64,000 bases of DNA from an uncultured virus (IMG/VR IMGVR_UViG_3300044858_005455) (IMGVR_UViG_3300044858_005455); one strand, 5' to 3'. Numbered from the stretch's first letter, positions 7,348 through 57,826 are shown. A program made the numbers and translations. The notes: generated by a model not told the origin, from the letters alone.

Positions 7348-7349
7348 GC

Positions 7350-16851: not shown

Positions 16852-16897
16852 AGCTAATAAGTTAATAGGTAATAGTGATTAATTAGAGGTTATGTCC

Positions 16898-26452: not shown

Positions 26453-28423
26453 TCAGTTATGACTGATCACATAGACGCGCTTAGCATCCGTATACCCTTT
26501 GTAGTCTTGTGGTAGAAGAGACCCTCCTACTTTAAGTGCCTCGCCCCATGCGGCGAGGGCACCATAGAGATCCCCGTTTGCTCCGAGGAGCACCCGGTTG
26601 ACGAAGGCACTATAGAGATCCCCGCTTTCTCCGATGATCACCCCTTTGATGAACCACATCTTAAGAATCTTCTGGGCTATCTCTTCGTAGAGAAGAATAA
26701 CCGTGGGCTCTCGTTGCTCTAGCCCAAGTGCTTCGCAATTGTCGAAGCACAAATCCCCGGACTTGTTAATCCAGGTCCAGGACTGGGCTATTATGGTTCC
26801 TATATCATCTTCAAATACGAGGAATCCAGAATTGGGCTTTTCTTGCCCATACCAAGCGCAGGCTTCCCCATCTCCGTCTGGGTGCTGACAACAGTTGGTA
26901 TATTCACCGAGGAAGAGCCCTCGCGTATCCTCCCGGGGGAGGAAGTACGCCCGTATTCCATCCCGGGTTGCACTAATCCCCGGGAGGAAGTTGGGTTGTT
27001 GTAGGGAACGTATAAAACGCCCCTCGTAGTACTCGAAATCCCGGGTAGATACGCCCCAATTGGCGCACTCAAGAGCAAACTCTTGGTGCTTAATATTTGT
27101 GTACTTACGTACTTTACATGCCGTCACTAGTTGACGGAATGGCAGAGAGCGCTCCTCTGTATTTAATTTGTGCCAGACTCGGCATATTAAGCCAAGTTCA
27201 GAAACTGAGGTAGAGCGCTGGCGTAGGCGCTCTCCCTGTGCGAATAGAAACTCGCTCAATCCCTGCCCGCCGAAGGGTAGCCAGTAAGTGGCGTCATGCT
27301 CGCTGTAGCCGAGCTTGGCCATCTTGCTGAGCCACTCTTCAGAGCGGCTTCCGAAAGTGGTTACCAATGGGATTATGTACTCTAGAGGATTCTCACGTAG
27401 CAATAGCTTATTAGCTGCTGTTACCTTCAAGGTAGGTATATGCCCGCCCTCCCCAAATATAGTTTCTTCGTTTTCTTTAAAGGCCTTGAGCAGAGGGCGC
27501 TCAATAGCACAACTAAGTTCCCCGTACAATTTACGGAGGGCTAGGCGCTTGTGCCCATTAAGCCACAGGTACTGAGCTATGGCCGTGCGCCCCGAGTGGC
27601 ACACCTCATTAAAGCGCTGCCAGAACGCACTAACGCGTTCGGTACGGGAACGGCGGCGCGCCCGATCCCATTGTTTCCCCTCCTCTTTCCAGATGACCCC
27701 AGCAAGGGCTCGGAGGTCTGGGCGGGACTTGTACAGAGTTCCCAGCCGTACAGCCAGAGACTTAGGAATCTCTGTATTGTACTTCCACACGCTCGCAGCT
27801 GGAATTAGATCCCAGACGTTACCAATGCGGGTGGGAACAGGCATACGAACTAGTACACGCTTAACCCAAATGGGTAAGCGGTTATAGTTCGGGGTGCATG
27901 CTACTGCCAATACCGTACTGTGGTCTGGTTGGTAACCAGAGTTCCATACCCGCCCAGGGGCGCGGACACCCTCCCATAGAGGGAGGAAACGCTTGACCTC
28001 CCACCAGTGTTTAACACCTAGATCTACTAGGCGTTCAGCTAACTGAGGAGTTCTTAGCTCCTCGAACCAAATTCCCTCTTTCTCGTAGGGGAGTTTAATA
28101 CCTTCGTTTAAATGAAGGTATCGGATAAGGCGGAGGCGCACTTTATTTGCCTCCTTTGCCTCCTCCAAGGTTATTTCTCGGGTCATCACCCGAGAGATAA
28201 TCCAGCGCTGGGAGCTAGATAGACTATTCCACTCCTCCCATTCACTCCAGGGAGTGAATGGATTGAGTTCCAGCCACTCCCGGAACTCAAGTAAAACGTT
28301 ATAAAGAGAGAAGTAGTAGGGAGCGGGGTCAGCTCCCAACTCAGCTCCCAACTCCCACTCAAAGGAGTAGGCAAGCTGAATACGGCCCGCTTTGGTTTTG
28401 GCAGATTTGATAAACTTAGACAT
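26453..28423 (-). CDS. Large early protein with a C-terminal PcfJ-like domain
   Basis: LGEYTNCCQH...AC.WYG...GFLVFE...IIAQSWTW...FDNCE; first gene of the leftward array. Confidence 0.6.
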   Translation of the reverse strand: MSKFIKSAKTKAGRIQLAYSFEWELGAELGADPAPYYFSLYNVLLEFREWLELNPFTPWSEWEEWNSLSSSQRWIISRVMTREITLEEAKEANKVRLRLIRYLHLNEGIKLPYEKEGIWFEELRTPQLAERLVDLGVKHWWEVKRFLPLWEGVRAPGRVWNSGYQPDHSTVLAVACTPNYNRLPIWVKRVLVRMPVPTRIGNVWDLIPAASVWKYNTEIPKSLAVRLGTLYKSRPDLRALAGVIWKEEGKQWDRARRRSRTERVSAFWQRFNEVCHSGRTAIAQYLWLNGHKRLALRKLYGELSCAIERPLLKAFKENEETIFGEGGHIPTLKVTAANKLLLRENPLEYIIPLVTTFGSRSEEWLSKMAKLGYSEHDATYWLPFGGQGLSEFLFAQGERLRQRSTSVSELGLICRVWHKLNTEERSLPFRQLVTACKVRKYTNIKHQEFALECANWGVSTRDFEYYEGRFIRSLQQPNFLPGISATRDGIRAYFLPREDTRGLFLGEYTNCCQHPDGDGEACAWYGQEKPNSGFLVFEDDIGTIIAQSWTWINKSGDLCFDNCEALGLEQREPTVILLYEEIAQKILKMWFIKGVIIGESGDLYSAFVNRVLLGANGDLYGALAAWGEALKVGGSLLPQDYKGYTDAKRVYVISHN

Positions 28424-32381: not shown

Positions 32382-33326
32382 ATGCTTACATTTAATAGAG
32401 ATCCACAACCTGCTACCATAAGCTCACCCCCCACTACTACTAATGCCGTCATACAGCAGTTCAATAGTGAATTAGAGGAGGAATGGGTAGTAGGAGAGCA
32501 GCAGGTTACCACACAGGGGGCCCGCGTGTATAGTCGACGATATCACGAGATACGCTTCAACGAAACAGATCTCGTACGATTAGATATGGTCAGCCTAGGT
32601 CAATATTCTCGTGTGTATGAGGCAGATCATTACTATAGACTCATACGCCCCTTCTACGAGGACGTGTACTCTGGCTCAGTGTCTAATCCCTATAATATGG
32701 GCCCGCCCAGTGATAGTGATTTCCTGCAGTGGCAGAAGCGTATTAATACGTATAGGCAGGAGAAGCACTATAGACCTAAGTGTGTGGATACGCTAGTATG
32801 GCGGCGTCCCGCTGATTGGCCATCGCTAGGAGAGGGCCTTGATGCAGGCGGTAATCCCATTGAGGTACCCACTCAAGAGCAGGGTACCTTTCCTACTACA
32901 CCCTACGTATTACCTCTAGTCAATGCAGGTAAGAGAGTGGCCGCCCGTGTAGTCGTAGATCCCCCCGTATCTCATACGGTAGAGATACTGCAGACTTCTG
33001 ATGGGCCAGCCCAGATAGTCAGTGGTATATTCTTATTGCACTGGCCTATTATACGTATTAAACTACTAGAGTTATTACTAGAGGCTCCCTGTACCGTAAC
33101 CGTGGAGTTCTGGGGAGAGTACCTATTCTCTCGCTTCAGTCCCGAGATAAATCACTCAGGAGAGAGCGATATACTACAGCACCCCGTAGGCTCTAGTCTA
33201 GAGACCAGATTATTACCCCCCAATAGGAGCAATATGCCGCAGAACTTCTGGAATAACGGTGGGGATACAGCCCCATTAGTAGATAATTACTGGGCTCGCC
33301 AGGGGGATGGATCATGGACAAGCTAA
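32382..33326 (+). CDS. Hypothetical (probable structural) protein
   Basis: 314-aa ORF. Confidence 0.7.
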   Translation: MLTFNRDPQPATISSPPTTTNAVIQQFNSELEEEWVVGEQQVTTQGARVYSRRYHEIRFNETDLVRLDMVSLGQYSRVYEADHYYRLIRPFYEDVYSGSVSNPYNMGPPSDSDFLQWQKRINTYRQEKHYRPKCVDTLVWRRPADWPSLGEGLDAGGNPIEVPTQEQGTFPTTPYVLPLVNAGKRVAARVVVDPPVSHTVEILQTSDGPAQIVSGIFLLHWPIIRIKLLELLLEAPCTVTVEFWGEYLFSRFSPEINHSGESDILQHPVGSSLETRLLPPNRSNMPQNFWNNGGDTAPLVDNYWARQGDGSWTS

Positions 33327-33562: not shown

Positions 33563-33813
33563 CTTATATATCAATTACATTCTCACAGCATCAGTCTCTT
33601 GATTGGTCACATACAATAGGAGAGGATGCCTTTGGCTGGCTACAGACAGCGGGGGAAGACAATATTATAGTAGAGAAGTTGGAACCATACGAGGCAGTAC
33701 TAGCCATAGAAGATGATATAGGCGATAATATAGGATATATATGCACCATGCTAATGGAGCACGGCATATTAGAATTTAATGTTCACGTAAGTCCTACTCA
33801 ATTAGCATGGTAA
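33559..33813 (+). CDS. Hypothetical protein
   Basis: 84-aa ORF with 4-nt overlap. Confidence 0.55.
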   Translation: MTYISITFSQHQSLDWSHTIGEDAFGWLQTAGEDNIIVEKLEPYEAVLAIEDDIGDNIGYICTMLMEHGILEFNVHVSPTQLAW

Positions 33814-34082
33814 CACTCTCAGACTACAGACTCACATACGAGATAACATCACTACCGACTATAATATTCGCTGGGATGACCGCGGCGGATGAGCCATTTC
33901 ACTTCACTCGCTTTGAGGTGCCCCCCATTAATGGTCCCATCGAGTGCCGCTTTTCACTATTCGATAAGTCAGGTAATTTGATAGAGTTATCTAATCAATA
34001 TGTGCACAGTACTACGCTAGTGGCTACCTGCAATATAGTGCCACTGCGTATGATAGAGAAGCTAGTTAAACCAGATCTATAG
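33807..34082 (+). CDS. Hypothetical protein
   Basis: 91-aa overlapping ORF. Confidence 0.55.
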   Translation: MVTLSDYRLTYEITSLPTIIFAGMTAADEPFHFTRFEVPPINGPIECRFSLFDKSGNLIELSNQYVHSTTLVATCNIVPLRMIEKLVKPDL

Positions 34083-37000
34083 AGTAACTCTCGCTCTCAT
34101 CTCGATAAGCCATACTATTGGGACGGTCCACTGTTAGGTCGCTCATGTAGAGGGCGTCATAAGTGTCGTATTCATCACCATTGAATATAGTTTGTACGAA
34201 GAACTCAACAGGGGAGCCCGTGTCATCCACGACCTCGGTTTCAGCATTATCCTCTCGTTCCATGCGAGCTCGATTCATACCTTCTTGAGCAGCGCGTATA
34301 CCGGCGCTAACAGCATCTAGAGCCGCGGGGGCTACACTACGCTGCATGCTGACCTCTAACCCACGGTGGAGTAACTTATTTACGAAGCCTGCTGATACGA
34401 GACTCAATGCCCCCGTGATGACGTTGCTAGCTACATTACGCAGGCCCGCGAATGGATCAGAGTCTATTGTAGGAGCCTTACCGAGTGTCTTCTCTATGAA
34501 TGGGTTGATGATATAGCGGCCTGCGAGTTGAGCTGTTGCGCCAAAGGCTATTTCCTGTGCTAGTAGCATACCGACACCAATTGTATAGTCTTCGTGTAGT
34601 TGACCTGCTAGGCGGCCCTTGAATCCCATACTCATCAGAGTACCTGCGGCGAAACGTCCCATCTGGTTACCTGCTGGGGCGCTTACGTAGGCCATAGCGC
34701 CTAGCATATTACCCATAGTCTGCTGCATTGCCTCGGGGCGGGCTCCGCCACTACTAATCATATCTCCTGCCAGTGCCATTAGGGGGAATAGAAGTACATC
34801 CATTAGATTACCGGCAGTATTGTTAAGAATAGGTAGATCATCTGCTACGCGCAAGAGGGGGCGGTCTGGTCGCGGGCGAGGGTCCAGTGGATCCACATCA
34901 GGAGGTGAGCCGGCTAGTAGGTAGTCGCGCCGACGAGCTGCTAACTCCTTAGCCCTATCTGGAGCGACACCCATATCCTGTAGCAGTTTTATATAACGCA
35001 TATCGACGTCACGGCTCTCATAATCTCGTAGCTCCTCTACTAGTCTATCAGCTGTATCTACCTGCTGACCTAGTGCTGTAGCGCGAACATAAGTAACCAA
35101 TCGACTAGTGGCCGCCTCATCTGTGAGAATTGTCTTCTGAATAAACTCTATTATCTCCTTATCAGCTGGGCTAGGGGTACCGCTATTGAGTAACACACTA
35201 AAGATATCTGCTATTTCATAGCGCTTACCATCAGCGTGAGTGAAGGTATCCATAAGAGACTCGAGGGCCCGTGTTACCTGCTCAGGCTCGTTTATCTTCC
35301 CGGCCGATACAGCCTGTAACAGTGATCTAACTAGCGGACTAGCTCCTGAGCCAGTAGGGTCACCAGCGGCAGTAATCAGATCCTGACCGAGTACATCCTC
35401 TAGCTGCCCTCCGTATAGTGTGGAGCGGGTACTATCATTAATAGCGAAGCGCAGTAGTTTACTGCCATCAGTATTGGCCCAGAGTGATGCGCTCTCCCTA
35501 CTACGTAGGAAGTTCATAGCTAATATACGCTTAGTATCCGTACCCATGTCCTGGAAGCGCTTATCTCCTATTACATCACGAGTGAAGTTCTGGAACTCTT
35601 CTACTTCTATCTCCATCTCGGTGAGGCCATTAGTGATGCCGCCTGCTATGAGAGCATCTATCTGAGCGGCCCGCGCGGGCTCACTATTTATGTAGGTCTC
35701 TACACTCTCTGCTAGGCCTCTACCAGAGCTAATGGGGTTTCCTGCCTTATCGGTTGGCATAGCCCGCTCGAAGGCGAATACAGCCGTCATACCTACTAGG
35801 TCCTGTCGTAGTTGATAGCTGGCTATGAGAGCGCGGCTATGAGTACCTATCTCATCTCCTCGCAATACACTTAATCGACGAGATAAATCTAACTGCTCAG
35901 TCTCTCCAATGGATAGCTTAGTCAGTAGATCATTAATCTTAGAGTCCTGGGCATCATTAGTAGCTGATGCCAGTAATTCTTTATGGGCCCCTATATACGC
36001 ATCTAATTTAAATAGAGGAGTTATAGACGGTAGTAGTCTATTCATATCATCCACTACACGCTGGCGCTCCACATCATCGACAGCATCTACAAAGCGCTTA
36101 TGGTACTGTGATAAGTTCTCTAGGAACTCAGCACCCCCCATCTTAGGCTTAATAGCATCCCGCAGCATTTGTTGTATCTCTTGCAGGAATGTGCCTACCT
36201 CGCCTACCTCTGTTCTACTCTGGCGGGCCAGTCTCTGTATATCCGCTATCTTACTATCGGCCTCTAGGTTAGCATCACTCGCGCTCATGCCACTTGCCAT
36301 ACCCTGATCGATTAGTATACGACGTATGTCATCCTGTAGGGCCGAGCTATTCTCTAGTGCATGAGACACAGCCATGATGGGGGAGCGCTCGTATAGCATA
36401 CCCACGGTAGTGTTATACGTCTTACCGAGGATTACACTACCTGCCTGACCCAGTACCTTCTGCATCATGTCGAATTGGCCGCCGCTCATTACACTACCAT
36501 CAGCGCGCTTCATGTACTTACTGAGATTATCGCGGGCATTAACGGCAGTTAGTCTATGTAGGAAGTCATATGCTTTCTCTTCCTGATCGTTACCTGTAGC
36601 GCTCAGGATATCATGTAGACTAGCCCGCACGAATGGTCCCGTATCAGGATTATTAACGAGATCGGTTAGTATGTTCTGGTCTGTAGAGGTAGATAATCTA
36701 TTAACTATATCAACTGCACTATCAGTTCTACTCTGCTGTATTAATTCTAATAGGGACTCATGGGCTGGCTGTATACGTGCGTATACGTCCTCCATCATAC
36801 CGAAGAGACCACGGGCCTGTTCTACTAGTACCAGGGCATGCTCTATACCTCGCTGTTCCAGCATACCCTTATCTAATTTCATATAGCCCGCTACCCAGCT
36901 ATACACTGAGTCGGTATACTCATTCCAATTAGCGTTAGTGGTTACCTGCTGTATAGTATCCAGTAGAGCACTGGCGCGCGTTTCTAAATCACTAGCTTGC

Positions 37001-40000
37001 TTCTCTAGAATGGTACGCTTAGTGGGATCAGCGGCCTGAGATGCCATCTCCCGCCGCTCCTTGGCGCGTTCCAGTATATCATCACGCTGCAACTTCATCT
37101 GAGAGTAATTGAAGAATATAGCGCTGAAGGTATCCCCATCGAAGTCCCCTAGGTTACTAGTTATAAAGCTGATGGGATTAAGTAGAGTCAACGACTTATT
37201 ACGAGTATCATCAAAAAAGTTAAAGCCACTGCCAGTCAGGTCTCGGTATATGCTATTGATACTATTGAGTGTATCTAACGCGAACACCAGCTTATCGAGA
37301 TGGGTGTTACCAGGGGGCGGGCTACGTTGAATCCAGGCTCTCGTTAACTCCAGCTCAGTGAAGAACATACTCATATCAGCCTGCAGAGTACTATTCATTA
37401 TGAATAATGAATCGCGCACCACACGATTAGCCTTTACAGAGGGCTCGATAACAGAACCATCTGGGAGTGTAACAACTGTAGCTAGTTCTGTTATATAGGC
37501 AGCCTTTGCATCATTTACCAGCTTCCTATACTGAGTTATGAGAGCTACGCCTCTATTATGTAAATCAGTGCCCCGCGGGCTCTTACCTTCTAAATACGTA
37601 TCTACAGCAGAGGTCACGGCATTAATAGTTCTCTCTAGACTATCTAGTCTAGTAGAGAATGTATTCAGCATCTCAGCACCATCCTTACCACGCGTATCGC
37701 TGAAGAAGGATAGGTCTATGGGATTCTTACGTGCACGACCCTGTAGTAGATCCAGGTTATCAAATCTATTACCTAATGCATTAGTATCAATGTAGATCCG
37801 CATATTATCAGGTATAATAGAGCGGGACGGGCCCTGACTACCTATCATGAGCCCAGAGATAATAATAGGTAAGTGACCCAGATCTCTATACTTATGAGTC
37901 TCAGCTCCAGGCAGAGATTCCAGTATTGTGCCCATCTCGACTTCACCTAGAGTAGATACTAGAGAATCCCCGCTACCGCTGAATTTCATGCTACTGAATC
38001 TATCCATCTCGACCTTAATTTCTGTCTCTAGTTGAGCGTATTCAGATGCCTGTAAACCAGGAGCCAGTTTTTCTATACCGGCTATCCTACTCTGGAAGTT
38101 CTTACTTTTATCTACTATTGTCTCTAGCCCATACATACCCGCTATACTGAGGCCTTCAGTTATAGCGTGTATCTGCTGTTGTATTAATCTGCGACCAATT
38201 TTCTTACTACCTGACTGGCTAATAACAGACAGGTTATCCTTAAGATAGTCCCCTAATCTACTAAGTATCTCCTCTCGTGTCTGACTACCTCGCGTACCGA
38301 AGCGCTCCATAGTGGCCTCTGCTAGTACGGCGCCGCGCACAGGTACATACCAGCTAGCGGCCCCCACACCGGTAGTACCTGTTACGCCTATCTTATTACC
38401 AGTGATAGGCTGCAGATATGCGCTCGCCAGGTCATTATAAACGCGGGCCTCATAGGTGCTATTGAGTTCCTGGAACCTAGTCAACTCCTGTATCTGGAAG
38501 TCACTGAGGCCTTCTAGTTCAATAGTAGTCCTCGAACTAGACTCAATGGCTACCTTCTCGAAGATATCGCGTACTGTACTACCGGGGGCCAGCATAACCC
38601 ATTTATCTACCGTAGCAGCAGCTATCTCATTCTCGTGGCTACCGAACTGAATACCTGCTATTCTCACATCTTCAGGACTCAGGATAAATCCCCTCTCCTT
38701 AATAGCTGTATTGAATACAACGTTATTCCCCTCTATACGGAAGGAGGGAAACTCATAAGCTATACGACGAAGACCCTTCTGGCCCATTGACTGCACGGTA
38801 GCTTCAGTGGCCTCTACACCCAGTACCTTATCCCCTGCTAGACGCCAGCGGGATGCATGGGCATATATATCATTCTTCAGGACACGAAGTGAATGGCGCA
38901 CTACATTACGTAGAGTATCTCTATCAGTACCCGCAGGTTGCCCCATCCATGTAGCTATCTCATCAAGTATAGTATGAGTAACATTAGTAGTATCGGGGCC
39001 CGACCCTCTAGTATATGACACCATGTCAGTATCACTGGCACTCTCGAGTAGAGACAATGCAGTGTGGAACTGCCTGTATCGTTCGCGTAGATTAGTTATA
39101 TCGCTTAGTGGGGCCCGCGCATCATTATACACTCCTAGTAATATCTCTCCTAGCGTAGAGTTAGCGTGAAAGTCTAGACTAGCCAGGTCATACATAGGAA
39201 TATCATCCACCACTATCTTATTGGGGTCTGCCCCTATGGCCATCTTCATGACGCCAAGTATAGCCTTACGCATACTATCGACACTACCATCACGCTTGAA
39301 TTTATCCACGTTAGCCATGAAGGGACTAGATACTATATGCTGCATTTCTAGTTGCGCAGTGTCCTTACTACTCAATGGCACCTTAGAGCTACTACCCATC
39401 ACGGCATTATATAGCACTACATAGCGAGAGTAATTACTCAATCTATCGAGCATAACGGCCACGTTCTCCTGGCCTACGCTTATCTCATCTGCCTGCGTAA
39501 CACCTGCTATAGCGCTCATAGCCGCATACGCATGACGAGATATACTATCGCTACCAGTCACTGGTGTAGTCTTGAGCTCTAGGGTATTATTAAGTGACAT
39601 GAGCTGCATCATAATCTCTAGGTTACCGGCTATAGCAGCACGCTCAAAGCCTCGACCCATAGCTCCAGTATCTACATAACCCCTGCGCGCTGCATCTGCT
39701 GCATCTACTATCAGAGCTACCTTATTAGATAACGCCCCGCTACTAGTTCCACTACGCAGAGCTGTCATTATCTCTGATATATCAATGGCCCCTAGAACAG
39801 GACTCTGTAGTCTATTAATAGCACCATCGCTCCCGCGTACTAGCTTCTTACCTATTTCGAGATGAGGGGGTCCATCTCCTAGCTTATCACTCTGCATAAG
39901 TTCCAGCATAGTAGACATATAGAGGTCACGATAGTAATTACCGAGCCGCCCCTGCGCTGCCAACTGTGCTATTTCTATATAGACACTATCTATATTGATA

Positions 40001-43000
40001 TTGCTATTATTACTAAAGAGACGCGAATCAGTTATGGAGAGGAGAGCGGCCGCTATCTGCTGATCATTCCGTTCTAGTACCCCCCGACGAAATAGCTCCC
40101 CGCCATTATAGGTAAGTAGGGTGGCCCCGTGATTGAATGCATAGCTCTTCAGGTTAGTAGGGCTGATTATATACTGGATGTCCTCTATCTCGAGGGCACT
40201 ATGGTAGCCCCCCTGCTGTATAGTGGGGAACACCTCACTACGCATAATATCTTCGCTCAGGAACACAGGGACTATTTTAGCTAGACCGCGCTCCGCCTCT
40301 ACTCTTCGAGAGCCACCTTCAAGTAGAGTGCGTAGGAATTGTATCTGCACCTGCACTTCATTAGTAGCATCGCTACCAGTCAGCCTACTAACCTGTAATA
40401 ACTGCTCAATAGCATACTCGCCGCGTATACCGGCTGCGGCACTAGTAGCCATAGAGGCCCCCATATTAGGATTACGAGATGTACTCTCTATCTGGTCTAG
40501 GAATACGCGCATTTCACTACGACTAGTGATAGCCTGCTTACGGCGCCCCTCTTTATCTAGTAGATAGTAGCGCTGTTCTCTCTCATCGAATACAATACGG
40601 TCATCGCTACTCACTAGTACATTATCGAATGTCCAGTCTCGTCCTAGTAAACTAGCCTTACTACTCTTAGTGGCTTGATCTAGGAAGCCACGTCTTACCC
40701 TATGCAGTGGGTTAGCATACGCGTAGTCACTATAGGCCCCCTCCAGCGCCATAATCATAACAGTAGGACGAGCCTGTCCAGAGCCTATCAATCCCCGCTC
40801 TCTACTAGCGAAGAGCTGAGATTGCACTATAGTAGCGCGGAATAGCTCGGCCAGTACGCTATCATCCTCAGTGGGTATATCCTCACTATCGATACCCAGG
40901 CGGTCGGCCAATTCATACCGTATAGCCTCTAACTCTACAGCCGCCTCTCTACTCATAAAGCGCGATATTCTACCACTGAATATAGCACCATAGCGATAGC
41001 TATCATCTACAATACTACTATCTAGTCCACGTGCCTCTAACCCCGCGCGCAGGTCGGCTAGGTATGCGTCTTGATACGTGCTGCCCTGCAGTACATCTAC
41101 ATCGCTACCACCGTAACGGGCCTGATACCTAACGGGAGTCAACTCAGGTATGCCCCTACCGGTATCAGTGGGACTAACTAACTCCAGCACCTGTGTGTAA
41201 CCCTCGCTTATATCCATGAGGGGGCGCATACCAATCACGTTCTTGAGACGCTGAGGCACCTGATCTGGCTTATTGGGATCAAAGAAGAACCGGAGTAGGT
41301 TATCGCCACGGGCATCAAACTCTGCTTCTAGCAGGGAGCGGTCTATACCCAAGTGACTCACTGCCTTCATGTATTCGCTCAGCTCATCTCGCCGTATGAT
41401 ATCCCCCACACCAGCGCTGCGTATGATGGATAGGTCAAAGACCTCACTAGCAATGGCACGGCGAGATAGAGGTAGCACATTATTATAGGCAGTAAAGAAC
41501 TGGCTCTCATCAGTAGTCGTAGAGCTCACGTTACCTTCAGCAACTCGTACAAAGAGGAAGTCATCGCCTACACCGAGGTCAGATACCGGACCTATAGGTA
41601 ATGGGCTAGCAGTATAAGCAAAGGCACTCAGGTTACTAAAGGTAGTCTCATTAGCCTTAATACGACGTAGCGCAGCATTAACTATAGATATACCGGCGGG
41701 CTGCCTACCCTGACCAAAGCCATAGGCCAGTAAACGATTACTTGCTTGTGTAGAGCCATAATTACGAGCCTGCGTAGGAGTGAGAAACGCAGCGAATGCG
41801 CTATTATGTATCTCCTTTAACCTCTCGCGCGCATCAGTCTTATAACGACTATCATTCTGAGATTCGATAAACTTGAATAATACATCAGCGAACATGGGAC
41901 CCTGATCCATAATCTCATATAGCTTATTAGCGGCAAGATTAAGGGCCCCTCTGCGGTGTGCCTCTAGGTCTGTTATGGACTGGCCTCTCTCATCTATAGA
42001 CCGCGCATAGGTAAGAAATATGTTAGATAGTTCCTCGAAGGCCACTCTACGACGACTATCAGTACGAGATATACTCGCTAGGTCTCGTATACGATCTAGA
42101 TCGGGGTCACTAGAGTAGAACAAAGAGGTCAGGTTACTGAGGCCTTGCTGTACTCTACTAGTACCCTCGTCCGTAGTTAGGTCAAGACCACTCACGCCCA
42201 ATAGCTTCTCGAAGAAGTTCATGGCACTCTGATACTGAGCGCCGGGGTCACGCTGTACAGCCTGAGCGGCGCGTATATTATCAGGACTATAGTACCTCTG
42301 GTACTCCATAAGTGGGGCCCGCACTAAACGAGTAGTCTCACTTTCTAACGCAATAGAGCTCATGAGACCAACTACTACATCCAGAGGATTAAGGCGTAGG
42401 CGTCTACGAGGATCCAGACCCACACCAAGACCATCACGTTCTATAGCCAGCTCCATACGCATTGTGCCAGTATTGAACAGCTCAGCTGACTCTATCTGAC
42501 GGCCCCCGCTTATATCTATGAAGGCGGCGGGCCCTTGTCCACTAGCGTTCCTATAGGCACCCCACTTATATATACGCTGAGTAGGTAAGCCCTTATTGAG
42601 CGTTAGAGTAGCGCCCTCTAGATTAAGACCATCGTAGTCTCGTTGTACGCTTATGACCTCAGAGCCGACAGCCGCGTTAACTCTTTCTATTTCGCTGATT
42701 AGGTCCAGTATGGCTCCTCTATCTACTCTATTACCATACATAGACCTACGGTCCCGTCCACTATAATGAGTCTCACCTATTCGTTGTATTCCCAGGGAGC
42801 TCTGTAATTTATAGAAGGCCCGCGCGTATTCTCTATTCTCCTCATCACGCTCCTCATTAGAGAGACTGAGAGGGCTTGTCCCACCCACCCTATCGTAAAT
42901 TATATTGATCTCCTGGTTAACGAGTTGACGGCTCAGGGGATCATTACTATCTGCCAGAGAATTAAGACCATAGTTACTGGATCCCTGGCTACCACCCAGT

Positions 43001-44793
43001 ATATCGAAGGCCTGGCGATTGTTTATATTCTGCATGCCCAGCCCGGCCCCTTGATTTATGGCGTCATCCTCGTAGGTCGCCAGGTATGCCTTAACGTGGC
43101 TGCGTGGTACTGCGGTCGGCTCTATATTACCGCTAGCTATAGCTAATAGCTGTCGGGCCATACGCTGACGGCCTTCGAGATCTCCATTATAGAAGCCATA
43201 CGTGCTCAGCACGTTAGCCATATCACTAACATCAGTACCCCGGTTCTCCTTAATCCAGCGGGCAACGTCATAATTAGATTGAGATAACTCAGCAGCTAGT
43301 TTCTGGTTGCTCAGTAGTAGGCGGCTCATAGGGTCCTGCACATCCTCTCGATAGGTATGTACATCTACTCCTATACGAGCGCGGCCCTCTATAACCAGAT
43401 CTAATACATTAGCCTGGAGCTTAGAGTATTCCTGCTCTCTGGCTTGCATGTATGCCTGGTAACCCGATAGTGTTCTCTCGTACTCGGGATTCTCTCCCAT
43501 CTCTCCCTTAAGCTGACTTGCCATCAGGGCCTTATCGTGTTTAAGTAGGAACACTTGATTGAGTACCATATAGAGGCGGCCCGTCTTACCGTCGATAGTA
43601 GGCCTATTAATGAGCTCATCTACATGACGGCGTAGAGCAGTATTAACATCACCAGCACCACCTATATTATCCTGCCCCGTGAATAGAACTCTATCGCCAC
43701 CATCTAATCTATCCATAACATCACGGGCCTGTAGGTATAACTTATCGGCTCGCGTTATAGTGTCAGGCAGTATATCCCTATCGGCATCCTGTATTTGACT
43801 ATAGGTCAGGTTAGTGCGTATAGTCCGCGTGAACTCTACATTAGAACCGGCCTGTTCTAGCGATTGTCCTAGTGGCCGCGTCACGTTCATTGTACCTATG
43901 AGAGCGGCCCTATCACTAACGAAGAACTTAGGGTGATTACGTCTATCAGCCCATTGGATATCTATATCTACAGCACTCCCGAAGCGGTCCCGTAGATAGG
44001 ACAGCCGCCTATAAAACATAATGTTGGGGCCCAGAATATCATAATTCTTACGAGAGTCCCCATCAGTCTCAGATGGAGCAGCCATACGAACTACCACACG
44101 GCCACCCTGACCACTACCAGCCATTCTCTCTACAGCTTCACTCACCATATCTATAGCACGCTCATTCTGAAACTGATAGATGTCTATACGCAGTTCTCTC
44201 TCTGCTGTATCTACTAGCGCGGCAATAGGTAGTAAGCCGGGCCGTACATTATAACCATCATCAGATAGTAGATCCAACATGCTAGAACGATTCTCTAGTA
44301 GTAGACGGCGTTCATCGTCTATGCCCTCCAGGTTAGACTGCATAGTGAGTTGATCTCGCTGGGCCATCCAATTAAGCATATCATCAGTCTGGGTACGGGC
44401 AGGAGTAGCTGTACCCCCCATACCTGCCATGTATTCGAAGTACTCCTGACGAGCGGGGCCCTCCATACTATCCCACAGACTCGAGATAGCAGCCCGACTA
44501 CTACTAGTATCAACTACCCTATCATAGAAAGCATCAGCTAGCACCATCTCCATAGAGGCGTCGGTACCAGGCGGTATAAAGTTAGGGTCCATTAATACTT
44601 CTAGAGGATTATAGCCCTGTAGTAATCTACTGCGCGTACCCTCAGGGATACGGTAGAGGGCATCCCAACGAGCACTGTCATTAAATCGATTACTAGAGAA
44701 TAGTGAGCTATTGATATCCATCAGTAGAGTACAGAACCTATTAAATAGAGCTATAGCTGAAAAACTGCCTACTTTAGCGGGCAGTGGCCTCAT
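34066..44793 (-). CDS. Giant 3575-aa protein: N-terminal phospholipase D-family (HKD) domain plus putative two-barrel RNA polymerase (candidate virion RNAP)
   Basis: HPKFFVSD..ALIGTMN (aa ~287) and HVKAY...GSSN (aa ~566); WIQRSPP...LLNPISFITSNLGDFDGDT (aa ~2550); start may be the later MDINSS. Confidence 0.75.
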   Translation of the reverse strand: MRPLPAKVGSFSAIALFNRFCTLLMDINSSLFSSNRFNDSARWDALYRIPEGTRSRLLQGYNPLEVLMDPNFIPPGTDASMEMVLADAFYDRVVDTSSSRAAISSLWDSMEGPARQEYFEYMAGMGGTATPARTQTDDMLNWMAQRDQLTMQSNLEGIDDERRLLLENRSSMLDLLSDDGYNVRPGLLPIAALVDTAERELRIDIYQFQNERAIDMVSEAVERMAGSGQGGRVVVRMAAPSETDGDSRKNYDILGPNIMFYRRLSYLRDRFGSAVDIDIQWADRRNHPKFFVSDRAALIGTMNVTRPLGQSLEQAGSNVEFTRTIRTNLTYSQIQDADRDILPDTITRADKLYLQARDVMDRLDGGDRVLFTGQDNIGGAGDVNTALRRHVDELINRPTIDGKTGRLYMVLNQVFLLKHDKALMASQLKGEMGENPEYERTLSGYQAYMQAREQEYSKLQANVLDLVIEGRARIGVDVHTYREDVQDPMSRLLLSNQKLAAELSQSNYDVARWIKENRGTDVSDMANVLSTYGFYNGDLEGRQRMARQLLAIASGNIEPTAVPRSHVKAYLATYEDDAINQGAGLGMQNINNRQAFDILGGSQGSSNYGLNSLADSNDPLSRQLVNQEINIIYDRVGGTSPLSLSNEERDEENREYARAFYKLQSSLGIQRIGETHYSGRDRRSMYGNRVDRGAILDLISEIERVNAAVGSEVISVQRDYDGLNLEGATLTLNKGLPTQRIYKWGAYRNASGQGPAAFIDISGGRQIESAELFNTGTMRMELAIERDGLGVGLDPRRRLRLNPLDVVVGLMSSIALESETTRLVRAPLMEYQRYYSPDNIRAAQAVQRDPGAQYQSAMNFFEKLLGVSGLDLTTDEGTSRVQQGLSNLTSLFYSSDPDLDRIRDLASISRTDSRRRVAFEELSNIFLTYARSIDERGQSITDLEAHRRGALNLAANKLYEIMDQGPMFADVLFKFIESQNDSRYKTDARERLKEIHNSAFAAFLTPTQARNYGSTQASNRLLAYGFGQGRQPAGISIVNAALRRIKANETTFSNLSAFAYTASPLPIGPVSDLGVGDDFLFVRVAEGNVSSTTTDESQFFTAYNNVLPLSRRAIASEVFDLSIIRSAGVGDIIRRDELSEYMKAVSHLGIDRSLLEAEFDARGDNLLRFFFDPNKPDQVPQRLKNVIGMRPLMDISEGYTQVLELVSPTDTGRGIPELTPVRYQARYGGSDVDVLQGSTYQDAYLADLRAGLEARGLDSSIVDDSYRYGAIFSGRISRFMSREAAVELEAIRYELADRLGIDSEDIPTEDDSVLAELFRATIVQSQLFASRERGLIGSGQARPTVMIMALEGAYSDYAYANPLHRVRRGFLDQATKSSKASLLGRDWTFDNVLVSSDDRIVFDEREQRYYLLDKEGRRKQAITSRSEMRVFLDQIESTSRNPNMGASMATSAAAGIRGEYAIEQLLQVSRLTGSDATNEVQVQIQFLRTLLEGGSRRVEAERGLAKIVPVFLSEDIMRSEVFPTIQQGGYHSALEIEDIQYIISPTNLKSYAFNHGATLLTYNGGELFRRGVLERNDQQIAAALLSITDSRLFSNNSNINIDSVYIEIAQLAAQGRLGNYYRDLYMSTMLELMQSDKLGDGPPHLEIGKKLVRGSDGAINRLQSPVLGAIDISEIMTALRSGTSSGALSNKVALIVDAADAARRGYVDTGAMGRGFERAAIAGNLEIMMQLMSLNNTLELKTTPVTGSDSISRHAYAAMSAIAGVTQADEISVGQENVAVMLDRLSNYSRYVVLYNAVMGSSSKVPLSSKDTAQLEMQHIVSSPFMANVDKFKRDGSVDSMRKAILGVMKMAIGADPNKIVVDDIPMYDLASLDFHANSTLGEILLGVYNDARAPLSDITNLRERYRQFHTALSLLESASDTDMVSYTRGSGPDTTNVTHTILDEIATWMGQPAGTDRDTLRNVVRHSLRVLKNDIYAHASRWRLAGDKVLGVEATEATVQSMGQKGLRRIAYEFPSFRIEGNNVVFNTAIKERGFILSPEDVRIAGIQFGSHENEIAAATVDKWVMLAPGSTVRDIFEKVAIESSSRTTIELEGLSDFQIQELTRFQELNSTYEARVYNDLASAYLQPITGNKIGVTGTTGVGAASWYVPVRGAVLAEATMERFGTRGSQTREEILSRLGDYLKDNLSVISQSGSKKIGRRLIQQQIHAITEGLSIAGMYGLETIVDKSKNFQSRIAGIEKLAPGLQASEYAQLETEIKVEMDRFSSMKFSGSGDSLVSTLGEVEMGTILESLPGAETHKYRDLGHLPIIISGLMIGSQGPSRSIIPDNMRIYIDTNALGNRFDNLDLLQGRARKNPIDLSFFSDTRGKDGAEMLNTFSTRLDSLERTINAVTSAVDTYLEGKSPRGTDLHNRGVALITQYRKLVNDAKAAYITELATVVTLPDGSVIEPSVKANRVVRDSLFIMNSTLQADMSMFFTELELTRAWIQRSPPPGNTHLDKLVFALDTLNSINSIYRDLTGSGFNFFDDTRNKSLTLLNPISFITSNLGDFDGDTFSAIFFNYSQMKLQRDDILERAKERREMASQAADPTKRTILEKQASDLETRASALLDTIQQVTTNANWNEYTDSVYSWVAGYMKLDKGMLEQRGIEHALVLVEQARGLFGMMEDVYARIQPAHESLLELIQQSRTDSAVDIVNRLSTSTDQNILTDLVNNPDTGPFVRASLHDILSATGNDQEEKAYDFLHRLTAVNARDNLSKYMKRADGSVMSGGQFDMMQKVLGQAGSVILGKTYNTTVGMLYERSPIMAVSHALENSSALQDDIRRILIDQGMASGMSASDANLEADSKIADIQRLARQSRTEVGEVGTFLQEIQQMLRDAIKPKMGGAEFLENLSQYHKRFVDAVDDVERQRVVDDMNRLLPSITPLFKLDAYIGAHKELLASATNDAQDSKINDLLTKLSIGETEQLDLSRRLSVLRGDEIGTHSRALIASYQLRQDLVGMTAVFAFERAMPTDKAGNPISSGRGLAESVETYINSEPARAAQIDALIAGGITNGLTEMEIEVEEFQNFTRDVIGDKRFQDMGTDTKRILAMNFLRSRESASLWANTDGSKLLRFAINDSTRSTLYGGQLEDVLGQDLITAAGDPTGSGASPLVRSLLQAVSAGKINEPEQVTRALESLMDTFTHADGKRYEIADIFSVLLNSGTPSPADKEIIEFIQKTILTDEAATSRLVTYVRATALGQQVDTADRLVEELRDYESRDVDMRYIKLLQDMGVAPDRAKELAARRRDYLLAGSPPDVDPLDPRPRPDRPLLRVADDLPILNNTAGNLMDVLLFPLMALAGDMISSGGARPEAMQQTMGNMLGAMAYVSAPAGNQMGRFAAGTLMSMGFKGRLAGQLHEDYTIGVGMLLAQEIAFGATAQLAGRYIINPFIEKTLGKAPTIDSDPFAGLRNVASNVITGALSLVSAGFVNKLLHRGLEVSMQRSVAPAALDAVSAGIRAAQEGMNRARMEREDNAETEVVDDTGSPVEFFVQTIFNGDEYDTYDALYMSDLTVDRPNSMAYRDESESYSIDLV

Positions 44794-44849
44794 AGGATTA
44801 TATCAATCAGCTTATCTGATATCTTATAGCACATACATGGAGAGACGTT

Positions 44850-45212
44850 ATGCACACTATCAAGTTACCGAAGGGCCAATTCGAGGTTAGCTTCAAGCCG
44901 CCCCTGGTTCGTGAGCGCCGCGAGATGATCAAGAATTATAATAAGGAGTGCGGCCTATTACCTGAAGAAGTACTAGCTATCCGTTGTATTGTTAACATCA
45001 ATGGCCGGGTCCTAGATAGCGATGCCTACGACTACGAACCCGATGGTATCACCGACGACTGGTGTGTCGAGGACCAACAATACTTCATGGAGGTATTCAG
45101 TACCCTATATCTCATTGACGATAAAGGGCGCGAGAAGGCCCAAGCGGAGGCAAAAAAGCTTATGGGTGTTTCCACGCGAGCTACGACTACAAAATCGAAG
45201 CAAGCCATCTAA
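44850..45212 (+). CDS. Probable tail assembly chaperone (gpG-like) with a -1 frameshift site
   Basis: GGAG RBS; 120 aa; in-phase A_AAA_AAG at 45152-45158 near the C-terminus. Confidence 0.7.
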   Translation: MHTIKLPKGQFEVSFKPPLVRERREMIKNYNKECGLLPEEVLAIRCIVNINGRVLDSDAYDYEPDGITDDWCVEDQQYFMEVFSTLYLIDDKGREKAQAEAKKLMGVSTRATTTKSKQAI

Positions 45213-45643
45213 ACATTCATCTAACGTACTTCCACCTAATAAACACTGAGTTATTCTGTAAGAATGCCGCGCTCCAGCGTATAGCCGATCCTCTGCTACA
45301 AATTGCTGGTAGTATATTCCCTAGTGCTAGGTTTATAGTATCGCCACCACCTGACCCCTATCTACCTGTTATTAAACATAACTATGTAGTTCAGGTGGCG
45401 CAGAACTATACCAAGTACTATCAACTAGAGAAGTGGGTTATAATAGCTAGCGTCACTGGTATAGGATTGCAGGAGTTTATTCAGCAAGACGAATATATGC
45501 AGGAGGCCGCTTATCAAGCGGCGTCTAACTATATTCAGAATCAGAATAAGAAACAAAAGCAATCCCTAGAAGAAATGACTAAATCTTTAGAGAATATGAA
45601 CTCTAACCCATTATCTGATATTAAGAGACCCTCATTCTGGTGA
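45158..45643 (+). CDS. -1 frame extension (gpGT-like); includes track ORF 45395-45643
   Basis: The -1 frame is stop-free from the slippery site to 45643 (161 sense codons). Confidence 0.7.
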   Translation, partial: AYGCFHASYDYKIEASHLNIHLTYFHLINTELFCKNAALQRIADPLLQIAGSIFPSARFIVSPPPDPYLPVIKHNYVVQVAQNYTKYYQLEKWVIIASVTGIGLQEFIQQDEYMQEAAYQAASNYIQNQNKKQKQSLEEMTKSLENMNSNPLSDIKRPSFW

Positions 45644-46980
45644 ATATGGAAGTACGTAACGCCCCCACGCCAGCAATACGCCGGCGCACTATCTACGCTA
45701 TGGAGCACCTAGGCCTAGCCACTAGTTATCTATCTGAGGATGGTGGCTATAAACGAGCAGGCAAGCCTACCTACCAGCAGCTGAGTGCCTGGGATGAAGC
45801 AGCGCAGGCGGAGCCTATCATAGCGCAGGGCCTCGACTCTATAGCACTGAGCGTGCTTAATAAGGTCGGGCCCTATCAACACGGGGATAAGCGCATTAAG
45901 AAGTTCATAGATGACCAACTACGCAATAGAGCCAAGACATGGATATCTCACTGCGTGAAGTCTATTATGACGTATGGCTTCAGCCTAAGCGAGCAGATAT
46001 ACGCCCACGGCACGCGTGATAATATGCCGGCTACAGTATTAGATGACATAGTTAATTATCACCCACTACAGGTCATGCTCATCACTAACGACAATGGCCG
46101 TATAGTAGATGGTGATACAGTAACAGCTAGTCAATACAAGTCGGGCTACTGGGTGCCCCTGCCTCCCTATAAGATAGGAGACCCCCCTAAGAGAGTAGAC
46201 GTGGTAGGTAGTCATGTACGGCTCCCTAGTCACAAACGGCTATTCATTAACTACAACACTAAGGGTAATAATCCCTGGGGTACCAGTTGCCTTACTAGCG
46301 TGCTAGACTACTCTATATTTAAGCGGGCCTTTCGAGATATGATGCTCATAGCTCTAGACCGCTATGGTACCCCCCTCATATACGTAATAGTGCCGCCCGG
46401 TAATACAGGCGTAGTAGAGGAGGCTCCTGATGGTACAGAGATAACCACTACTATAGCGGAGCAGGCAGAGGACGCACTCCGGCGTCTGAGCACCGACTCT
46501 GGTTTAGTATTAACACAGCTCAGTAAGGAGCAGCCGGTACAGGTGGGGGCCCTAACTACAGGTAATAACTTCAGCGACTCATTTGAAAGAGCCATATCAC
46601 TCTGCGATAGCAATATGCTAATGGGTATGGGTATTCCTAACTTACTGGTGCAAAATAGAGAGACTACCTTTGGTACAGGCCGGGCCAGCGAGATTCAACT
46701 AGAGCTCTTCGACGGTAAGATCAACAGTATATTCGATACAGTGATACACGCCTTCACTGAACAGGTCATAGGCAACCTAATCAGGTTGAACTTCGACCCC
46801 GCAATATACCCACTGGCCAGCAACACGGGCTATATAACTCGTTTACCAGGGAGGGCCACTGATCTAGCAGCACTGATAGAAGCCATTAAGCAGATGCACG
46901 ACATGGGCTTCCTAGTAGATGGAGATAAGGATCACATACGTTCCATTACTGGATTACCCGATGCCATTAGTTCTATTTAG
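45640..46980 (+). CDS. Portal protein (Mu gp29/DUF935-like)
   Basis: YGFSLSEQIY, NPWGTS.L, ALDRYGTP, FTEQVI..LI.LNF; position before the protease and capsid genes. Confidence 0.8.
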   Translation: MNMEVRNAPTPAIRRRTIYAMEHLGLATSYLSEDGGYKRAGKPTYQQLSAWDEAAQAEPIIAQGLDSIALSVLNKVGPYQHGDKRIKKFIDDQLRNRAKTWISHCVKSIMTYGFSLSEQIYAHGTRDNMPATVLDDIVNYHPLQVMLITNDNGRIVDGDTVTASQYKSGYWVPLPPYKIGDPPKRVDVVGSHVRLPSHKRLFINYNTKGNNPWGTSCLTSVLDYSIFKRAFRDMMLIALDRYGTPLIYVIVPPGNTGVVEEAPDGTEITTTIAEQAEDALRRLSTDSGLVLTQLSKEQPVQVGALTTGNNFSDSFERAISLCDSNMLMGMGIPNLLVQNRETTFGTGRASEIQLELFDGKINSIFDTVIHAFTEQVIGNLIRLNFDPAIYPLASNTGYITRLPGRATDLAALIEAIKQMHDMGFLVDGDKDHIRSITGLPDAISSI

Positions 46981-48880: not shown

Positions 48881-50194
48881 ATGGCAGATACTCCGAGCCC
48901 CAACTTTCAAGCGCTTATCAGCAGCCCCTACTTAGTAGACAACACTACGTTCCCTCGGGAGCCTGTATACACTGAGTTAGCCCGCTCTATTCTCGCTAAG
49001 TTACCTGCGACCCCTCTCAGCACTGTATTCCCCGATGAGACTATTGCTGAGCGCATTGTCATTGCTGAACACGTCATCGAAGGCGTCGATACTATTTTCC
49101 CTGTGGTTGAATGGGGTGCACCTGACCTATTCGTTGATGACGATGGCTATACAGTGTATCGCCAATCCTACCAACCCCTTCCTATCCGTCAATCGATGTA
49201 CATGAGTTATGCCCAACTCAATAACACTGTGAGAGAGGGTACTACTAATGAACGCGCTACTGCTGCTGAACAGATTGAGAAAAAACTTACCCGTCAAATG
49301 CAGAAGCATCAATTAACCTGGAACGTGTTCCAGGCTGCTATGATGCTCGGCGGCATCAATTACACTGATCCTCGTTCTGGAGTTCGTGTTAAGGCCCCTG
49401 CGTACATCCCCGCGCGTAACTTCTTTAACTTCAACACTACCCAAGGTTGCCGTGGCCGTAATGAGGCCCGTTTATTCCGTAACCTCGTTGATTTAAACGC
49501 AGGCGGTACTCCCAGTTCAGGCATTCCTATCACTGATCCTCAGTTTGCTCTCTCCAACTTTGCACGTCGACTAAACCGTTGGTTTAAGGATACCAATAAA
49601 TCGGATATCACCGATATGTATATGGGTCCCGAGATGCGTGACGTTATTCTCATGTCTGAAGAAGCTCGTCTCGCACAAGGCGGTATTATCCCTAGGCTCG
49701 GCGCAGTGTTTGGAGACAGCACAATTGAGTCCAGCGGCAGTGGTGGGTCCTTTGGCCCCCTCCCTCCTGGTGGATTAGGAACTGGCATGGGCCTAGTATT
49801 AGGTACCCGCGGCGAGATCCTCTCTATTGCGGGAATCAACGTTCACGTAGTAGATACTATCTACAAGGACCCAGTTGATGGCGTTGAGAAGCGCGTATGG
49901 CCTAAGAACAAAATTGTAGCTGTCAGCTTCCGCGATAGCAATGGTAACGTAGAAGCACCGGGTAGAACTCAGTATTGCTCTAGTGAAAACAGCATTGATA
50001 GCCCCGGCTTATGGACTCGTACTGTTACTGATGTTCCTCCTCCGGCAGCCCCTGGTATCGCGGTTCAGATGGGTAATGCGGGTCTTCCCTACTTCAAGTT
50101 CCCCTATCGCGTCTGCCATGTAACTCCCTGTACCGTACAGCAAATCAATGAGCGTCTAGGTATCCAAGGAGACCTATTCTTCCCTGGTTTATAA
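48881..50194 (+). CDS. Major capsid protein
   Basis: 437 aa, directly after the protease/scaffold; distinct highly-expressed codon usage. Confidence 0.8.
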   Translation: MADTPSPNFQALISSPYLVDNTTFPREPVYTELARSILAKLPATPLSTVFPDETIAERIVIAEHVIEGVDTIFPVVEWGAPDLFVDDDGYTVYRQSYQPLPIRQSMYMSYAQLNNTVREGTTNERATAAEQIEKKLTRQMQKHQLTWNVFQAAMMLGGINYTDPRSGVRVKAPAYIPARNFFNFNTTQGCRGRNEARLFRNLVDLNAGGTPSSGIPITDPQFALSNFARRLNRWFKDTNKSDITDMYMGPEMRDVILMSEEARLAQGGIIPRLGAVFGDSTIESSGSGGSFGPLPPGGLGTGMGLVLGTRGEILSIAGINVHVVDTIYKDPVDGVEKRVWPKNKIVAVSFRDSNGNVEAPGRTQYCSSENSIDSPGLWTRTVTDVPPPAAPGIAVQMGNAGLPYFKFPYRVCHVTPCTVQQINERLGIQGDLFFPGL

Positions 50195-57038: not shown

Positions 57039-57042
57039 TATA

Positions 57043-57768: not shown

Positions 57769-57790
57769 TCCCACATTCTCTCCGCTTATG

Positions 57791-57820
57791 GGGCTCAGGA
57801 TTTCCTGAGTTCCTTTTTTA
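57791..57820 (+). terminator. Intrinsic terminator
   Basis: GGGCTCAGGA-TT-TCCTGAGTTC followed by a T run. Confidence 0.75.
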
Positions 57821-57826
57821 TTAATT

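Follow-up and report, generated by a model that had tools for sequence, protein, structure and literature searches.

Coliphage N4 packages a polymerase of ∼3,500 amino acids (aa), gp50, in its head and ejects it together with its DNA. Thermus phage P23-45 gp96 is a giant siphovirus tape measure (5,002 aa) whose N-terminal polymerase, of proven activity, was recognized solely by the motif DFDGD; the remainder has no detectable similarity to RNA polymerases (RNAPs), and the same chain has fused virion functions besides the polymerase, membrane segments among them (PMC10770324). Phage phi14:2 gp66 is described as a single-chain, virion-packaged enzyme of 2,180 aa that is encoded among structural genes and has a DxDxD barrel (DFDID) within mostly novel folds, with QDE-1 as its nearest relative and its barrels ∼140 residues apart (bioRxiv 10.1101/2020.03.07.982082). 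Here we describe a 3,575-aa protein, hereafter the giant protein, in which a phospholipase D (PLD)-superfamily domain is joined to a predicted DFDGD-bearing barrel. It is encoded in 64,000 nucleotides of DNA from an uncultured virus (IMG/VR IMGVR_UViG_3300044858_005455), the whole of which we call the window. In our reading it is a further case of a giant phage protein hiding a two-barrel polymerase, and we put the probability of the full reading, an active RNAP delivered with the virion, at about 0.5.

The window is ∼95% identical in DNA sequence to Fukuivirus, the Microcystis myophages Ma-LMM01, MaMV-DC, MaMV-DH01 and others (nine records). Among the lytic phages of toxic Microcystis blooms, Ma-LMM01 and related phages serve as the models. 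The giant open reading frame (ORF) at 34066..44793, on the minus strand like every part of the protein located below, is real and open under table 11, as an earlier note on this DNA had proposed, and all motifs named in that note (both HxK sets, QRSPP, DFDGD and RRVEAERGLAK) were found at the nucleotides where it had placed them. The Ma-LMM01 orthologue, gp080, carries the annotation “hypothetical protein” and has the automatic UniProt name “PLD phosphodiesterase domain-containing protein” (from the BFVD listing). The only PHROG match of the giant ORF is phrog_31006, a family of unknown function that is covered end to end. The real start may be Met25 (ATG 44721), giving 3,551 aa without cysteine, because the sole cysteine precedes Met25 and a −10-like element, GATATAAT, lies immediately ahead of the annotated ATG at 44793 (region 44721-44810, minus strand).

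Like P23-45 gp96, the giant protein is recognized as a candidate polymerase solely by DFDGD, its remainder lacks detectable RNAP similarity, and it carries comparable non-polymerase regions. It differs in having the candidate polymerase in the second half of the chain and a PLD domain at its head, in being encoded by a myovirus gene beside the portal gene, and in showing no sequence similarity to gp96: a tblastn search with aa 2441-3040 against 50,697 phage records found relatives in only 10, nine Fukuivirus and Microcoleus phage My-WqHQDG, all of them annotated “hypothetical.” Like gp66, as far as sequence and model tell, it combines a DxDxD-type barrel with mostly novel folds, whereas its motif is DFDGD, its nearest structural match is beta-prime/Rpb1 and its candidate partner barrel lies ∼580 residues upstream. 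With N4 gp50 the likeness is one of analogy only, as the lengths are nearly equal but the N4 domain has a T7-like right-hand fold and not the two-barrel one. Full-text literature searches, of incomplete coverage, found nothing linking Ma-LMM01-type phages to a two-barrel polymerase and, in agreement with the earlier note, no described PLD-RNAP fusion, the PLD part having already been named automatically in UniProt. The accessible text of the P23-45 paper and its supplements, of PMC2919709 and of PMC7824862 makes no mention of Microcystis or LMM01.

The barrel predicted around DFDGD

DFDGD (aa 2550-2554; 37132..37146) is a metal-binding loop of the DxDxD type characteristic of two-barrel RNAPs and pairs with NADFDGD of Escherichia coli beta-prime. 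It lies on a predicted beta-prime-type double-psi barrel in two halves. The first half (aa 2133-2160; 38314..38397), delimited by structural alignments and conservation, is separated from the second by a helical insert of ∼325 residues (aa 2161-2484; 37342..38313) whose last part is a four-helix bundle (aa ∼2355-2484); an insert occupies the matching position in the beta-prime barrels of cells and jumbo phages (PMC7824862). The second half (aa 2485-2564; 37102..37341), delimited by model and conservation, holds the catalytic-type loop and R2490-S-P-P-P-G2495, with QRSPP at aa 2489. In the first half G2139 is 95% conserved; in the second, R2490, P2493 and G2495 recur in 95-98% of 61 sequences. 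Of 60 aligned family sequences, 59 have D[FYWL]DGD, and the one without it is a 605-aa fragment that does not cover the region.

An AlphaFold2 model of aa 1441-2640, built on a 29-row alignment and with a mean predicted local distance difference test score (pLDDT) of 67.9, groups strands at aa 2135-2146 and 2154-2156 with others at 2485-2490, 2503-2507, 2536-2538 and 2555-2560. A VIA all-against-all comparison of this model with 48,161 chains gave six largest subunits of multisubunit RNAPs among the 50 rows listed, all six ending at model residues 1122-1124, which is 8-10 residues beyond DFDGD (model 1110-1114). When the top Foldseek chains (930) were re-aligned, 11 of the 50 rows listed were bacterial beta-prime; six beta-prime rows superpose at root mean square deviations of 2.0-2.4 Å over 90-94 residues at 14-16% identity. 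The superposed spans run from model residues 693-695 (aa 2133-2135) to 1123-1124 and from beta-prime chain residues 419-421 to 548-549.

The Asp motifs fall in register in these alignments, provided that the numbering of the PDB entries equals the sequence index. Residues 331-480 of E. coli beta-prime align gap-free with residues 406-555 of both 5uh5_D and 5tw1_D, which puts E. coli D460-D464 at 535-539 of these two chains. In the structural alignments the first residue is the counterpart of K345 in the E. coli stretch GKRVDYSG, and the end lies ten residues beyond the last Asp in both the giant protein and beta-prime. A first model, of aa 2430-3100 (pLDDT 67) and so without the first barrel half, serves as a control. 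Because it splits the barrel in two, DFDGD falls in a low-confidence stretch (pLDDT < 50) followed by long helices; RNAPs made up none of the 50 rows in the wide VIA search with this model, and a second look found one RNAP row, on a generic coiled coil.

The earlier note had named a fold other than the double-psi barrel as the outcome that would speak against its polymerase; the region is predicted, with moderate model confidence, to lie on a double-psi barrel, and we consider it very likely that this is a true beta-prime-type polymerase barrel. According to the model, the barrel is ∼1,800 residues downstream of the PLD domain in the same polypeptide. Of the proposed PLD-RNAP fusion, the union of a PLD domain and a beta-prime-type barrel in one chain is thus supported. 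With the cellular beta-prime/Rpb1 barrel the giant protein shares DFDGD, including the Gly at position four. Unlike cellular beta-prime it has no Pfam Rpb1/Rpb2 match, carries the ∼325-residue insert and is a single chain.

Several results weigh against a polymerase. The barrel strands have a pLDDT of only 52-77, the beta-prime rows of the structure searches are largely copies of two proteins, Foldseek against the PDB gave no match at E ≤ 0.001 with either model, and none of the beta/Rpb2 chains, gp66, QDE-1 or the P23-45 enzymes is among the structural matches listed, in searches that barely probed the beta part. A second barrel and a bridge helix were not demonstrated by profile, hhalign or structure searches. 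Pfam RNAP families were not found on the whole protein (E ≤ 1), on 12 overlapping pieces of it (E ≤ 10) or on 12 relatives (E ≤ 10). A phmmer search of PDB sequences with the whole giant protein gave no RNAP match, and profile searches of the same database returned only coiled-coil proteins for aa 2430-3100, on the helical stretch past DFDGD, and nothing meaningful and no RNAP for aa 1100-1900. Comparison by hhalign with E. coli beta-prime matched the DFDGD loop only (9-14 columns, E 0.07), and with phi14:2 gp66 it matched nothing.

Other sequence-level comparisons give the following picture. PF00623 has no match in the closest virus record and matches in 14 of 14 control genomes, and the ESM Atlas gave no usable match to aa 2331-2900. 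Limited to 150 residues, hhalign pairs GDFDGD of the family with NADFDGD of E. coli beta-prime at E 2.9e-4; it also sets the first barrel half against GKRVDYSGRSVIT, pairing the GKRVDYSG stretch with the family's G-x-K-x4-G-x-T-x-T, at an E of 0.08 that is not significant. Other divergent two-barrel polymerases are reported to have been missed by sequence methods likewise (PMC10770324, section 12). A separate stretch, GRARKNPIDLS (aa ∼2353), was likened to a beta-prime motif and then dropped because it is not conserved in the family.

The missing RNAP signal in Pfam, PDB profile and hhalign searches, the missing Foldseek match and the undemonstrated second barrel and bridge helix would all suit a protein that is no polymerase, namely an ejected or structural megaprotein in which PLD is the sole enzyme and DFDGD sits on a small barrel with a metal-binding or other role in a helical scaffold. 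So would the Foldseek search of BFVD, which returned only the Ma-LMM01 orthologue and, with weak E-values, helical tape-measure or “minor tail” proteins, as well as the sigma-70-like promoters reported in all gene classes (PMC5780444). However, the barrel matches the beta-prime/Rpb1 barrel specifically and not other double-psi barrel proteins; these matches come from four RNAP kinds, have 14-19% identity and keep the Asp motifs in register. In addition, D-x-D-G-D with Gly at its fourth place is invariant down to ∼20% identity, and the possible site of a second barrel has further invariant basic residues. We therefore consider an ejected or structural megaprotein without polymerase function unlikely.

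The PLD domain, further conserved blocks and the protein family

The PLD-superfamily phosphodiesterase domain has two lobes within aa ∼180-630 (42904..44256) and is indicated by Pfam PLDc_2 as well as by the automatic UniProt name. The first HKD motif (43885..43935), H287-x-K289-x4-D294 followed by G300-T-M-N303, reads HPKFFVSD at aa 287 (nt 43935) and GTMN at aa 300. In the second (42973..43098), H566-x-K568 followed by G-S-S-N607, HVK stands at aa 566 (nt 43098) and GSSN at aa 604, the Asp is replaced and ∼30 residues lead from HxK to GSSN. None of the six residues, the His, Lys and Asn of both motifs, varies among 13 diverse N-terminal pieces (that of the window and 12 from distant loci). 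On a 500-aa piece of the giant protein Pfam PLDc_2 matches aa 192-306 at E 5e-4 with 20.4 bits, not reaching the cut-off of 27, and PLDc matches at E 0.013 with 16 bits, under its cut-off of 21.9. Among the N-terminal pieces of relatives, PLDc_2 is found at E ≤ 1 in 10 of 13 (best 1.2e-7) and PLDc in six of 13; one relative has a precomputed PF13091 match. The two-HKD domain with GTMN and GSSN partners that the earlier note had described is thus borne out by invariance and by PLDc_2, here below threshold.

The closest matches, all weak, lean toward nuclease-type members of the superfamily. The family profile run against PDB sequences found the poxvirus nicking-joining enzyme (30ie_B, E 0.09) and the PLD4 exonuclease (E 0.2), in the HKD motif alone, and NCBIfam gave weak matches to DpdK in five of 13 relatives (best 1.7e-4) and to the nuclease NucT in two of 13, far under the family cut-offs. 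NucT, DpdK, the poxvirus enzyme and the PLD3/4 exonucleases share the HxK...GSxN catalytic motifs with the giant protein. Unlike these nuclease-type enzymes, the giant protein lacks the Asp of the second motif and has the ∼30-residue spacer there. We take the PLD domain to be real and probably active, since each His, Lys and Asn of the two motifs is invariant.

A conserved block at 40114..40317, comprising R1497, L1504, K1506, K1549, S1550, H1555 and G1556, is a candidate barrel of the beta type. The block contains RRVEAERGLAK (aa 1496-1506; nt ∼40280-40308), its basic residues R1497, K1506, K1549 and H1555 are invariant in the family, and it lies ∼580 residues ahead of the first beta-prime-type barrel half, making aa 1497-1556 the natural candidate for the second barrel, which would contribute basic residues, in a beta-then-beta-prime order. 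The earlier note had called the stretch (aa 1496-1560) beta-like; it is conserved, but profile and hhalign comparisons did not tie it to the beta subunit, hhalign of the candidate barrel against E. coli beta giving weak E-values of 0.29 and 0.42. The model has a pLDDT of 44-64 over the block, and predicted docking of aa 1460-1640 on aa 2120-2640 gave no verdict (score 0.00), with the fold of the partner uncertain.

The best-conserved block of the family (36142..36498) lies on two long predicted helices and includes G2766, G2782, A2784, G2785, L2789, G2790, K2791, Y2793, N2794, Q2875, R2878, D2879 and K2882. The helices (aa 2771-2815 and 2838-2880) found only generic helical hairpins in structure searches. 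They occupy the place expected of a bridge helix and trigger loop, and it is a guess that the helices of aa 2766-2884 serve that role. Toward the end of the chain, aa 3290-3480 (34354..34926) form a hydrophobic region rich in Leu, Ala and Gly, which together make up 37.7% of it compared with 26.2% of aa 1-3100. Here the earlier note's hydrophobic Gly/Ala-rich C-terminus is present in composition, but its hydrophobicity is moderate: one 19-residue window reaches a Kyte-Doolittle value ≥ 1.4 (aa 3328-3351). Hydrophobic segments occur within the last 120-400 residues of all 10 relatives checked.

Relatives of the giant protein are similarly large. Searched with HMMER, 1.84 billion cluster representatives yielded 41 proteins with E ≤ 1e-3, 39 of them at ≤ 1e-10 and nearly all of 3,000-5,400 aa, and a word-indexed search with the surroundings of DFDGD found 11 proteins of 3,511-4,787 aa at 24-93% identity; the family proteins are collinear along their full length. 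IMG/VR holds 19 loci with relatives, 13 of them distant (21-28% identity), and a metagenome scan added at least five further loci, whereas among 185,579 prokaryote species (one genome each) a single contig of a metagenome-assembled genome has a relative. This distribution over phage records, IMG/VR, metagenomes and prokaryote genomes indicates that the giant gene belongs to free phages and not to bacterial chromosomes. The giant protein is a hallmark of Ma-LMM01-type cyanophages.

Across 12 of 12 full-length sequences (21-96% identity), H287, K289, N303, H566, K568, N607, R2490 and D2550-D2554 are invariant, as are further blocks at aa 1175-1190, 1352-1362, 1497-1556, 2782-2805 and 2875-2882. 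The PLD residues and DFDGD co-occur in one chain in all 12 of these full-length relatives (alignment A1), and the 12 distant loci with invariant PLD residues have exact DFDGD in 11 cases and DYDGD in one (L017). Two of the conserved stretches sit after the PLD domain and before the candidate second barrel: K-x2-Q-x2-Q-R-x-K-N-x2-G-x-R-P at aa 1175-1191 (nt 41221-41271) and G-x3-D-x4-N-P at aa 1352-1362 (nt 40708-40740), both on the minus strand.

Cysteine is nearly absent from the family. Among relatives longer than 1,900 aa, 45 of 47 are cysteine-free, and the giant protein and the Ma-LMM01-type representative have one cysteine each, at residue 21, before Met25. The 17 other ORFs of the window average 0.74% Cys, which would give ∼27 in a protein this long. 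Selection against cysteine would be expected for a chain that passes unfolded through a tail and an oxidizing periplasm. Cellular beta-prime has zinc sites built from Cys, for which a family without cysteines therefore has no room. The absence of cysteine over 2,000-5,400 residues is a possible marker for other translocated phage megaproteins.

Gene neighborhood, expression and proposed function

A block comprising a 120-aa gene, an 82-aa gene, the portal gene, a 481-aa gene, the major head protein gene and a 368-aa gene runs divergently from the giant gene. The earlier note had placed the giant gene next to the morphogenesis operon; it does adjoin morphogenesis genes but is transcribed divergently from them. 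At 13 of 14 distant loci (none in L018) the portal gene (45640..46980, plus strand; phrog_113) adjoins the giant gene, and a head-protein match, corresponding to the major head protein gene at 48881-50194 (plus strand), stands beside it in 10 of the 14. The 120-aa gene between giant and portal genes (44850..45212, plus strand) is conserved, with a tblastn match in 13 of 14. These counts were made in 10-kb flanks, so that some absences perhaps reflect the flank limit, and two of the loci (L008 and L023) are probably one virus.

In Ma-LMM01, whose orthologue (95% nucleotide identity) is the source of the expression data used here, gp080 has log2 values of fragments per kilobase of transcript per million mapped reads of 0, 0, 7.3 and 8.5 at 0, 1, 3 and 6 h (Table S3, PMC5780444). 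It belongs to cluster B5 (“middle”) together with the portal gene gp083 and stays far under the 14.1 of the head protein (PMC5780444). The giant gene is thus expressed with middle and late genes and not with early ones. With no gp080 RNA at 0 or 1 h, the protein must, if it acts early, come with the particle. We infer delivery by the virion because the gene is adjacent to portal and capsid genes, has no transcripts at 1 h, belongs to a cysteine-free family and encodes a hydrophobic C-terminus; P23-45 gp96 and phi14:2 gp66 are precedents.

We propose that the barrel would be the catalytic center of a nucleotide polymerase, most likely a DNA-dependent RNAP, that is very divergent and carries its two barrels in one chain; the conserved basic block at aa 1497-1556 would provide the second barrel. 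The protein would be synthesized alongside the portal and other B5-class (“middle”) gene products, packaged in the head in few copies and threaded unfolded through the tail into the cell, which the family-wide lack of cysteine fits. After entry, the PLD domain and the hydrophobic end may work on the envelope or on the ends of nucleic acids, and the polymerase would work on incoming phage DNA ahead of any phage protein synthesis. The earlier note had likewise proposed an ejected protein that would couple membrane breaching or DNA nicking with early transcription. A more specific version seems to us doubtful, though worth stating: a previously unrecognized lineage of giant, cysteine-free, head-packaged RNAPs in Ma-LMM01-type cyanophages and many kinds of uncultured relatives, with a fused beta-then-beta-prime core that resembles cellular multisubunit enzymes more than the QDE-1/crAss/YonO clade, joined to a PLD domain and a membrane-active tail and injected to start the phage program. 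This version would overturn the published view of full dependence of these bloom-controlling phages on the host SigA-RNAP.

A cryptic polymerase in these phages would alter the explanation of their three-phase program and of their mild effect on host transcription. It would also add a very divergent single-chain polymerase with a beta-prime-like barrel, the first joined to a PLD enzyme.

Published promoter and genome analyses count against such a role. The Ma-LMM01 transcription study reports sigma-70-like promoters for early, middle and late genes and unchanged host transcription (PMC5780444), and the MaMV-DH01 paper, in its accessible text, states that the genome lacks an RNAP. The early operon (gp063 to gp054 orthologues) agrees with them: repeat units of ∼33-42 bp directly upstream (window 16860-17120; 3640-3930 in the locus L001) carry TAGCCA-N17-TATGGT/TATAAC elements that are sigma-70 promoter-like. 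The sigma-70-like promoter findings do not speak to independence from the host RNAP.

A non-virion two-barrel RNAP, made in mid-infection to transcribe late and some middle genes in the manner of the phiKZ-type nonvirion polymerases or P23-45 gp64, would draw equally on the evidence for the barrel fold, and gp080 transcripts do appear at 3 h, ahead of the 6-h peak of the late genes. Four late promoters with a somewhat different motif could be its targets, but the authors still read the late promoters as SigA-like (PMC5780444). It also leaves unexplained the size of 3,575 aa, the PLD head, the hydrophobic tail, the missing cysteine and the fixed adjacency to the portal gene, and we regard it as an improbable account of the giant protein. 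A two-barrel polymerase with another job (primase-like, an RNA-dependent RNA polymerase, a PolD-like DNA polymerase or a motor pulling DNA in by abortive synthesis) is very unlikely, for although the superfamily takes in RNA-dependent RNA polymerases and PolD (PMC7824862) and sigma-70-like promoters everywhere leave scant need for a phage transcriptase (PMC5780444), the closest structural matches are subunits of DNA-dependent multisubunit RNAPs and not QDE-1 or PolD.

Other features of the window

Two small genes at the far end of the giant gene travel with it, as does the 120-aa gene at 44850-45212, and none of the three has a Pfam family. One, of 91 aa (33807..34082, plus strand), overlaps the 3′ end of the giant gene with its own 3′ end on the opposite strand, and the other, of 314 aa, lies at 32382-33326 (plus strand); each has a match in seven of the 14 distant loci. 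On the other side, the region 54714-61263 holds, in this order, the genes for the sheath (54714-57038, plus strand), for proteins of 241 aa and 623 aa, and for the baseplate. A tape-measure role for the giant protein was considered and rejected, the gene standing beside the portal gene on the opposite strand and not between tail tube and baseplate genes.

For a tape measure, a rule of thumb is ∼1.5 Å per residue. The 1,699-aa gp064 orthologue (17390-22489, minus strand) has a length that would fit a tape measure of ∼255 nm, compared with the 260 nm reported for the tail of MaMV-DH01. It contains 26 cysteines, has no Pfam match and has phrog_30979, of unknown function, as its only PHROG match.

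In the repeats ahead of the early operon, Tandem Repeats Finder reports a pair of exact 33-bp copies (16928-16994), and less exact ones are seen nearby by eye; the equivalent repeats of Ma-LMM01 number 6.7 copies of 42 bp. N4-style hairpin promoters were sought in these repeats and rejected, as they fold no better than shuffled sequences (z −0.23 and +1.09).

The G+C content is 0.39-0.42 in window positions 1-8000 and 0.45-0.52 in 8001-64000. A 656-aa ORF at 26453-28423 (minus strand) has no PHROG or Pfam match and may be a strain-specific insertion, because the Ma-LMM01 annotation contains no ORF of that size ahead of the endolysin genes. A 229-aa ORF at 10330-11019 (plus strand) matches the HNH_3 endonuclease family above the cut-off (E 2.4e-6). 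It opposes the block of minus-strand ORFs that ends at the early operon and sits at the low-coordinate edge of that block.

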